64,000 bases of DNA from Parcubacteria group bacterium (GCA_943357895.1 CALRGO010000001.1:140042-204041), one strand, 5' to 3'; shown: positions 1,518-1,662, counted from the stretch's first letter. A program made the numbers and translations. The notes: generated by a model from the letters alone, not told the origin.

Positions 1518-1547
1518 TTGACTTTTTAGCGTATTATGCGTTAAAAT
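1518..1547 (+). promoter_or_regulatory. Sigma70-like promoter (TTGACT, 17 nt spacer, TAAAAT) driving the leader of the S-layer-like gene.
   Basis: TTGACT lies at 1518-1523, followed by a 17 nt spacer and TAAAAT at 1542-1547. The implied transcription start is near 1555. Confidence 0.4.
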
Positions 1548-1554
1548 CTCAAGC

Positions 1555-1662
1555 GTAGCCAAAGTGAATATGCGGTTCAGTGTGAGGCCTGAACCCTTCG
1601 TTTAGCCTATGTTTTTCATAGGCTTAGAAGGTTTTTAGCCTCGGATCGCATCCGAGTTTTTT
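1555..1662 (+). ncRNA. Candidate small RNA or attenuator leader upstream of the S-layer-like gene: three hairpins, the last an intrinsic terminator.
   Basis: Hairpin 1: ggttcag (1574-1580) pairs with ctgaacc (1589-1595). Hairpin 2: agcctatg (1604-1611) pairs with cataggct (1617-1624) around a ttttt loop. Hairpin 3: ctcggat (1640-1646) pairs with atccgag (1650-1656), followed by TTTTTT at 1657-1662. A 11-codon uORF (MRFSVRPEPFV) at 1570-1605 overlaps hairpin 1. Confidence 0.3.

Follow-up and report, generated by a model that had tools for sequence, protein, structure and literature searches.

Does the structured RNA encoded in front of a large surface-protein gene act on its own, or does it control the gene that follows it? 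This question is raised by positions 1518–1662 of a stretch of 64,000 nucleotides (nt) from a Parcubacteria group bacterium (GCA_943357895.1 CALRGO010000001.1:140042-204041; hereafter the window), in which an earlier reading made without database searches (the sequence-only reading) had recognised a promoter followed by three hairpins and had proposed either a stand-alone small RNA (sRNA) or a transcription attenuator or riboregulator of the downstream gene. We found that the leader is an RNA conserved widely across Paceibacteria (candidate phyla radiation) and not represented in Rfam 15, and that two mutually exclusive, conserved and near-isoenergetic folds are available to it between the only detectable promoter and the gene. 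We consider it probable that the element is the 5′ part of a surface-protein messenger RNA (mRNA) leader of ~220 nt and acts as a four-strand transcription attenuator, most likely serving, according to our model, as an on/off valve for the major surface protein of the cell.

The three consecutive hairpins, here called H1, V and T (Table 1), are all present in the window, and T has the form of a canonical intrinsic terminator, with a stem of 7 base pairs (bp) that includes four G–C pairs, a 3-nt loop and a U6 tract directly after it; however, together they make up only one of two alternative folds. A transcript from the inferred start to 1662 would measure ~105–109 nt, in agreement with the length of roughly 108 nt given in the sequence-only reading, and the folding that it had suggested as a check gave −39.4 kcal/mol for positions 1550–1665 (z = −4.36 against dinucleotide shuffles, with none of 200 shuffles as stable). 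Consensus scans alone remained near chance, with three terminator-like sites where 1.5 were expected and five promoter-like sites, a number not beyond chance, where 1.8 were expected, and the case for the feature therefore rests on its conservation in relatives. A fourth small hairpin (1553–1573) was predicted in the window only, and was rejected as a part of the element since it shows no conservation in the clade alignment.

We gathered orthologous loci by look-up of the exact protein and added 80 loci from a collection of species-representative genomes (individual loci are given by their L numbers). At least 260 homologues of the surface protein were found, with identities from 86% down to ~35%, and their named sources are Patescibacteria, namely Parcubacteria/Paceibacterota and Jorgensen-, Wolfe-, Lipton-, Yanofsky- and Harrisonbacteria. 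When five upstream regions were first aligned, the promoter, H1, the terminator (with compensatory changes) and a block 3′ of the terminator proved to be conserved; the sequence of V did not, and in L003 this hairpin has compensatory changes. In 66 Paceibacteria genome loci, a covariance model (R1) built from 23 natural sequences matched once per locus (E < 1e-3), always 5′ of the orthologous gene, and it matched the window at 1571–1662 with 59.9 bits (E ~1e-12). Hairpins resembling H1 had no other occurrence in 1.1 Mb of sequence. Wherever the downstream sequence suffices, the element stands directly 5′ of a large surface-protein gene and is co-oriented with it.

The same association was found in a context-free scan of metagenomes for the H1 core, which returned 120 loci; R1 matched 41 of the first 100 searched, and the number of metagenome contigs with the element, one copy per locus, is put at ~35–40. 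Loci in AT-rich DNA with an upstream TATAAT box bear the full element, and all 28 metagenome loci with enough sequence have a surface-protein homologue downstream. About 60% of the metagenome pattern matches were discarded as fortuitous hits within GC-rich coding sequence from unrelated organisms, and a viral collection contained no match to the element.

Conservation of the hairpins in relatives, on which the sequence-only reading depended, held with covariation for H1 and T but not for V. Among 65 distinct sequences, 96.9% of the cells of H1 and T are paired and nine of the 12 pairs change on both sides, giving a covariation of 0.363 against 0.196 in column shuffles (reached by 0 of 500) and at most 0.107 with slid partners. 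Taken separately, 95% pairing was found for the H1 helix, six of whose seven pairs change on both sides, and 99% for the T helix, where three of five pairs do so and the U5-7 tract is kept. Because many of the pairs in H1 and T are G–U, selection acts on the plus-strand RNA. GTGAGG is found upstream of nearly every orthologue, always between the arms of a hairpin of 6–8 bp; in about a dozen lineages a hairpin of 20–40 nt is inserted between the H1 5′ arm and GUGAGG, and the hexamer is still unpaired (e.g. L040, L048 and L054). The terminator is almost invariant across the family, of the form (c)AGC-CUCGC(uu)-loop-(aa)GCGAG-U5-7. V ranges from ~10 to 165 nt, is hypervariable in sequence, usually forms a long hairpin and is nearly absent in L012 and L208.

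Rfam 15, which the sequence-only reading had named as a check, yielded no family match for the whole 64-kb window at the gathering score, and searches at E up to 10 with the window leader and 13 loci with related leaders returned chance-level hits only (FopS, anti-hemB and microRNA-like hairpins). Two of these were examined and rejected: the FopS sRNA (RF04319; 22.6 bits against a threshold of 56) and anti-hemB (RF02837; 16.2 bits against 49.5) aligned only to the terminator and a U-rich stretch. Neither set of Rfam searches gave a match to PyrR, a T-box, ANTAR or a riboswitch, and the literature held nothing relevant on the motif, its hexamers or the surface-protein leaders of Patescibacteria.

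A second set of pairings is also open to the leader. Four strands would take part: strand 1 is the H1 5′ arm, strand 2 the GUGAGG loop together with the H1 3′ arm (1582–1595), strand 3 the flank and 5′ arm of T (UAGCCUCGG in the window), and strand 4 the T 3′ arm, followed by the U tract. Pairing 1:2 would form H1 as an anti-antiterminator, 2:3 an antiterminator and 3:4 the terminator. The T 5′ arm and the three to five bases that precede it are conserved far past the needs of a terminator, and this flank (AGC or UUCAG), though outside the T stem, often copies strand 1 (UUCAG, GGUUCAG). The H1 loop and 3′ arm (GUGAGGCUGAA) find their complement in the T 5′ arm with its conserved flank (family consensus UUCAGCCUCGC), and the resulting long-range helix, 5′-GUGAGGCUG(AA) with (UU)CAGCCUCGC-3′, is 92.3% paired on the model alignment. 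Since the H1 3′ arm (CUG...) is common to H1 and to the antiterminator helix, the two pairings compete. The 6-bp core of the antiterminator is 97.6% paired, nearly invariant and includes one G–U pair; in its 3-bp extension, double changes occur in 14 cells where 6.9 ± 2.1 would be expected (a count reached by 2 of 500 shuffles), and the helix extends by 3.56 bp within a locus against 3.08 bp with partners shuffled (0 of 5000). In L150 an antiterminator of 13 bp is possible.

The two folds are close in predicted energy. Across loci, when the antiterminator (median 10 bp) is imposed on the fold, the median penalty over the minimum free energy (MFE) is 0.0 kcal/mol. For the nascent RNA, in which strand 4 has not yet been made, the imposed helix comes to within 1 kcal/mol of the MFE in 39 of 47 loci; the antiterminator core has a median equilibrium probability of 0.9 and is predicted to be the dominant fold in most relatives. 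In the window, where the antiterminator helix would stack on V, the terminator fold has −39.7 kcal/mol and the antiterminator fold −38.0 kcal/mol, with probabilities of 0.61 for T, 0.61 for H1 and 0.31 for the antiterminator. Forcing the window antiterminator costs 1.2–1.7 kcal/mol, and the same helix is the MFE fold of the nascent window RNA.

The position of the element relative to promoters determines what these folds could do. The near-consensus sigma70 promoter of the sequence-only reading is present in its hexamers, which fit 10 of 12 consensus positions, but the spacer is 18 nt rather than 17 nt; from the sequence, transcription is inferred to start near 1554. Across the family, 47 of 62 loci have a match to TATAAT in at least five of six positions 5′ of H1, where 19.7 would be expected, and these boxes mostly begin 9–22 nt before the hairpin; this enrichment places H1 at the very start of the transcript or close to it, and in many relatives H1 starts 0–10 nt past the inferred transcription start. 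Between T and the start codon of the family loci, by contrast, such boxes are not enriched (16 against 24.4 expected); no second promoter was detected between T and the ATG, so that the mRNA must be transcribed through T. Also, as the sequence-only reading had pointed out, no plus-strand gene lies 5′ of the element, the neighbour being the divergent Wzy_C gene.

In 20 of 63 loci (among them L013, L017, L022, L053, L055, L057, L059, L062, L072, L075, L080, L147 and L150), the leader promoter is preceded by a box, TTATCCACA, identical to the DnaA-box consensus. This box lies 40–90 nt 5′ of H1, too far from the −10 box for a −35 element, and does not occur in the window. In many window genes a TAnnAT-like box lies no more than ~10 nt from the ATG (e.g. 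at the starts 7294, 11709 (minus), 16231, 47244 and 58815), which suggests that many window mRNAs are leaderless or have very short leaders; since such mRNAs seem common, the ~220-nt surface-protein leader is exceptional in this genome. By a loose test, 11 of 42 window genes have a motif resembling a Shine–Dalgarno sequence, and because few have one, GAGG is unlikely to act as a mimic of it.

These observations can be combined into a mechanism. During transcription H1 would form first. If it stayed intact, strand 3 would be free to pair with strand 4, and transcription would stop at ~1657–1662. Alternatively, the emerging strand 3 would nucleate on the unpaired GUGAGG toehold, displace strand 1 and pair with strand 2, and the resulting 2:3 rod, stacked on V, would block the terminator so that RNA polymerase continues into the gene. 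With 1 nt, 6 nt and 0–1 nt in succession, the loop has a geometry that would be compatible with an H-type pseudoknot. Read-through would be the default state, which would suit a heavily used gene, and anything that occupied the loop or clamped H1 would leave strand 3 free and let T form. A trans-acting factor that binds or stabilises H1 via its invariant loop would accordingly impose termination. GUGAGG is invariant while the stem of H1 covaries freely, which argues for sequence-specific recognition of the loop beyond base pairing; the constraint on GUGAGG would then pass to CCUCGC and from there to GCGAG. By analogy with PyrR at the pyr anti-antiterminator, this factor is most probably an RNA-binding protein and less likely a complementary RNA loop.

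An RNA loop of this kind is nevertheless encoded by many of the leaders. In 52 of 65, a hairpin (K) downstream of T displays CCUCAC, the exact complement of GUGAGG, in its apical loop. K is found 40–130 nt 3′ of T in the L015–L087 leaders (e.g. L063 ~5690–5720, L030 ~5680–5700); its hexamer is always apical, with an unpaired probability of ~0.9 against a mean of 0.43, and the stems that carry it vary in sequence from locus to locus. G never directly precedes CCUCAC (0 of 50), and the complementarity between H1 and K is exactly 6 nt, no extension past this length having been found. GUGAGG can pair with the terminator arm CCUCGC by way of a single G–U wobble, whereas the CCUCAC of K is its full Watson–Crick complement. 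It is possible, though quite unlikely, that the attenuator is set by RNA, the K loops of finished mRNAs kissing the nascent H1 loop so that strand 3 is blocked and transcription terminates; conversely, terminated leaders could titrate K. If true, this would amount to a self-counting feedback of mRNA level on the most abundant envelope protein. The window clade, L147 and L150 all lack K but retain an intact H1 and T, so that the core switch does not depend on K.

In the window clade the position of K is taken by a small hairpin whose stem covaries in the clade alignment A6 (AUUAU/AUAAU, AUCGU/GCGAU and GUUGU/AUAAU), followed by a conserved block (Table 1) in which GAGGUC (1699–1704) could form a hairpin with GGCCUU (1720–1725). 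This block contains, at 1701–1706 within GGUCGAUAG, one copy of a hexamer that recurs throughout the family: (AAA)GGUCGA(C/U/A) is present in one to four copies between the terminator and the ATG, with 121 copies in 62 leaders against 6.3 expected (~20-fold, as is the enrichment of GGUCGR in leaders across the family). The motif is strand-specific, with a single copy on the opposite strand, and its last copy often lies 17–38 nt before the AUG; it may be a protein-binding or translation element. No Shine–Dalgarno sequence is present in the leaders. Together with K-based feedback, repeated GGUCGA motifs near the start codon would, if that reading were true, constitute a multi-module RNA control unique to these reduced-genome bacteria.

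Two loci show the H1–T module in a different setting. In L147 (2234–2314) and L150 (11392–11468, minus strand) it occurs without K or GGUCGA, ~20–45 nt before the ATG of genes for other giant secreted proteins, of 1950 and 1714 amino acids (aa), respectively. As judged from its sequence distribution, the element behaves like a cis-regulatory module that is portable among genes for surface proteins.

Could the short transcript itself be the product? A dual-function or trans-acting sRNA of ~105 nt (H1–V–T), whose GUGAGG loop pairs with targets and notably with the CCUCAC of K, is in our judgement unlikely, even though the element has its own promoter and terminator, the apical CCUCAC is retained on divergent stems, and a complementarity of 6 nt fits a loop–loop kiss. 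The element is never seen away from a surface-protein gene, which has no detectable promoter 3′ of T; K is missing from the window clade, L147 and L150 despite intact H1 and T; both hexamers are invariant, so that nothing covaries between them; and the conserved antiterminator helix would have no role in a pure sRNA. The stand-alone sRNA offered by the sequence-only reading is thus not favoured, given the constant neighbourhood of the gene and the short distance from T to the ATG in L147 and L150, and the data do not call for a free-standing sRNA as a by-product either; its other proposal, an attenuator or riboregulator, finds good support in the cis position, the competing conserved antiterminator helix and the lack of a detectable promoter between T and the ATG. 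We are also doubtful that the leader is constitutive and structural, a rod or an H1 that shields an abundant mRNA from ribonucleases acting from the 5′ end, or tunes translation, behind a leaky and unregulated terminator. In known 5′ stabilisers, such as the ompA, aprE and Lactobacillus slpA leaders, a hairpin sits close to the transcript start, as H1 does in many relatives; most relatives are predicted to adopt mainly the antiterminator fold, and a long leader is exceptional in a genome with few Shine–Dalgarno sequences. Such a role leaves unexplained, however, why a canonical GC-rich stem with U5-7, whose invariant sequence is complementary to the H1 loop, is kept across the class, and why the mutually exclusive folds are nearly isoenergetic.

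A metabolite or ion riboswitch, with the pseudoknot of H1 and strand 3 as its aptamer, is very unlikely. Pairing of a hairpin loop with the 5′ arm of a terminator is the design of small riboswitches of the H-type pseudoknot kind, among them preQ1-I and fluoride, and the loop geometry fits, with 1 nt before and 0–1 nt after the 6-nt pairing tract; however, Rfam gave no family match, nearly all conserved nucleotides are taken up by Watson–Crick or G–U pairs so that no conserved pocket is left, the region between the partners is hypervariable, and the loop tolerates insertions of 20–40 nt. Least credible of all, to the point of being extremely improbable, is attenuation by ribosomes translating a leader peptide. 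The 11-codon upstream open reading frame noted in the sequence-only reading (MRFSVRPEPFV) does exist, from an ATG at 1570 to a TAG ending at 1605, and overlaps H1, covering strands 1 and 2 as in the trp leader, but it is not conserved: an ATG-initiated frame runs through H1 in only 12 of 63 leaders, with different frames, lengths and peptides (MVQCEA in L003, at 84% protein identity; 69 codons in L004), and there is neither a Shine–Dalgarno sequence nor a run of regulatory codons.

Several points weigh against the four-strand attenuator that we favour. The core of the antiterminator is invariant, which is compatible with a helix but carries no covariation information; the covariation in its support comes from three flanking pairs only, and shared ancestry could explain part of it. 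The antiterminator of the window clade is short (6 bp), its extension being interrupted by an additional C that follows GUGAGG, and the balance in the window tips slightly towards the terminator fold. The nearest-neighbour energies used throughout ignore co-transcriptional kinetics. Termination at 1662 and its regulation are predictions, and a candidate binding protein was not found: the window clade lacks the winged-helix gene that abuts the leader in 59 of 83 loci, and neither a phosphoribosyltransferase (PRTase) nor a PyrR-like protein was present among the 28 window proteins scanned. Finally, if the antiterminator were always dominant, the terminator might go unused and the rod might do no more than serve as a stabilising structure at the 5′ end.

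Among known systems, the PyrR attenuators of the Bacillus pyr operon (RF00515) share with the leader the order of anti-antiterminator (promoter-proximal), antiterminator and terminator. The pyr anti-antiterminator has a purine-rich conserved loop, its binding consensus reads ARUCCAGAGAGGYU, and read-through is the default unless the protein stabilises the hairpin (PMC7430163). This consensus agrees with H1 (GGUUCAGAGUGAGGCU) at 12 of 14 positions only if a 2-nt insertion is allowed. Unlike in PyrR sites, where GG lies in the stem, GAGG lies in the loop of H1; the RF00515 model gave no match even at E = 10; the genes downstream encode PG_binding_1 or other giant secreted proteins and not pyrimidine enzymes; and PyrR was not found among the scanned window proteins. 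By analogy, the element would work like the PyrR system without being a member of it.

Mutually exclusive 1:2, 2:3 and 3:4 pairings between promoter and first gene are also the arrangement of the Escherichia coli trp and phe leaders and of Bacillus subtilis TRAP; here, in contrast, a conserved leader peptide and (G/U)AG repeats are both lacking, strand 3 would invade via a hairpin-loop toehold, and a hypervariable hairpin separates strands 2 and 3. In its place before a probably dominant cell-surface protein, the long structured leader resembles the Lactobacillus slpA and Thermus slpA S-layer leaders, and in the Clostridioides difficile cwpV switch and cyclic di-GMP (c-di-GMP) riboswitches a leader terminator decides the expression of a surface protein. 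There is no sequence or Rfam similarity to any of these leaders, no invertible element or c-di-GMP aptamer was found, and those leaders come from Firmicutes or Deinococcota, whereas the present leader is confined to Paceibacteria. The loops of H1 and K, complementary over 6 nt, recall the kissing pairs ColE1 RNA I/RNA II and CopA/CopT, but both loops are here on one transcript, K is missing from the window clade, and the kiss is predicted.

Table 1 Leader features and flanking genes in the window
Feature	Position	Strand	Description
−35 hexamer	1518–1523	+	TTGACT; position kept in clade relatives (TTGACT or TTGACG)
−10 hexamer	1542–1547	+	TAAAAT; TACAAT, TATGCT or TATAAT at the same place in relatives
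Hairpin H1	1574–1595	+	7-bp stem GGUUCAG/CUGAACC, loop U-GUGAGG-C
Strand 1 (H1 5′ arm)	1574–1580	+	GGUUCAG; putative anti-antiterminator strand
H1 loop	1582–1587	+	GUGAGG; invariant; predicted exposed toehold and start of the antiterminator strand
H1 3′ arm	1589–1595	+	CUGAACC; remainder of strand 2
Variable hairpin V	1596–1631	+	Outer CUUC/GAAG (1596–1599 with 1627–1630), inner AGCCUAUG/CAUAGGCU (1604–1611 with 1617–1624); spacer between strands 2 and 3
Strand 3 core	1638–1643	+	GCCUCG; pairs with UGAGGC 1583–1588 (antiterminator), or 1640–1643 with the T 3′ arm
Intrinsic terminator T	1640–1662	+	CUCGGAU (1640–1646)/AUCCGAG (1650–1656), loop CGC, U6 at 1657–1662
Small clade-specific hairpin	1678–1690	+	GUCGU-CUC-ACGAU; takes the position of K (loop CCUCAC in more distant relatives)
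Downstream leader block	1697–1726	+	Second GUGAGG fused to GGUCGAUAG (1697–1709), then GAGGAUGGCCUUU; (nearly) invariant in the clade
Wzy_C (O-antigen ligase-like) gene	start at 1448	−	Divergent
Surface-protein gene	1776–4982	+	1068 aa, secreted, signal peptide and PG_binding_1 domain; presumed regulated gene

The leader occupies an intergenic gap of 327 nt (1449–1775) between the divergent Wzy_C gene and the surface-protein gene, and 3′ of the latter, on the same strand, a second Wzy_C/TPR gene is followed by sugar-nucleotide and glycosyltransferase genes. No further copy of the element was found in the window by blastn or by the covariance model, bar the terminator 3′ of the surface-protein gene. 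This strong intrinsic terminator (~5035–5064) closes the gene and gave a model match at 5001–5062 (22 bits, E 0.02); its similarity to T was counted as a sign that the genome uses such terminators. Weak model matches 3′ of the gene arise because a GNRA-like loop followed by G residues of the stem mimics GUGAGG, and in L024, L037, L046, L062 and L081 the loops of the post-gene terminators read GUGAGG by chance. The surface-protein gene has a GC content of 0.57 (window 2001–4000) against 0.43–0.47 in its neighbours, and an antisense open reading frame of 680 aa (1818–3860) within it is probably a compositional artefact.

The winged-helix gene found upstream in other loci encodes a protein of ~240 aa with a C-terminal DeoR-type winged-helix domain, on the same strand as the leader (e.g. 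L006 2169–2735, L211 523–1209 and 57 other loci), and is a candidate regulator of the locus. It is absent from the window, L001–L005, L008, L009 and L012; the window clade has the divergent Wzy_C gene instead. Runs of N were observed just 3′ of the leader terminator in three independent scaffolds of metagenome-assembled genomes (MAGs), namely L004 (~2830–2930), L008 (~5770–5950) and L014 (~5535–5635), and in L008 the leader sequence is duplicated on either side of the gap; the leader appears hard to assemble, via strain variation or repeats. Elsewhere in the window, a 938-aa protein with two Lamin Tail Domains is encoded at 39399–42215, and other genes include one for a PaaX-like protein (38149–38811), two for NUDIX proteins and those for ribosomal protein S4, RpoA, an EPSP_synthase-family (MurA-like) protein and MreB; a scan for transfer RNA (tRNA) and transfer-messenger RNA (tmRNA) found none.

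As far as its sequence and predicted pairings allow the kind to be assigned, the element belongs to the terminator/antiterminator attenuators, as a newly recognised, class-wide member. Gene regulation is almost uncharted in the bacteria of the candidate phyla radiation, which have tiny genomes and few recognisable regulators, and the analysis defines for them a class-wide cis-regulatory RNA located 5′ of what is probably the major, dominant envelope protein of Paceibacteria, and of other giant surface proteins in L147 and L150. The covariance model and the precise pairing predictions make the mechanism bench-testable, and the invariant GUGAGG loop provides a bait for finding the regulator. The element can also serve as an annotation marker for the major surface-protein locus in Paceibacteria MAGs, a locus whose envelope protein presumably mediates contact with host and phage.

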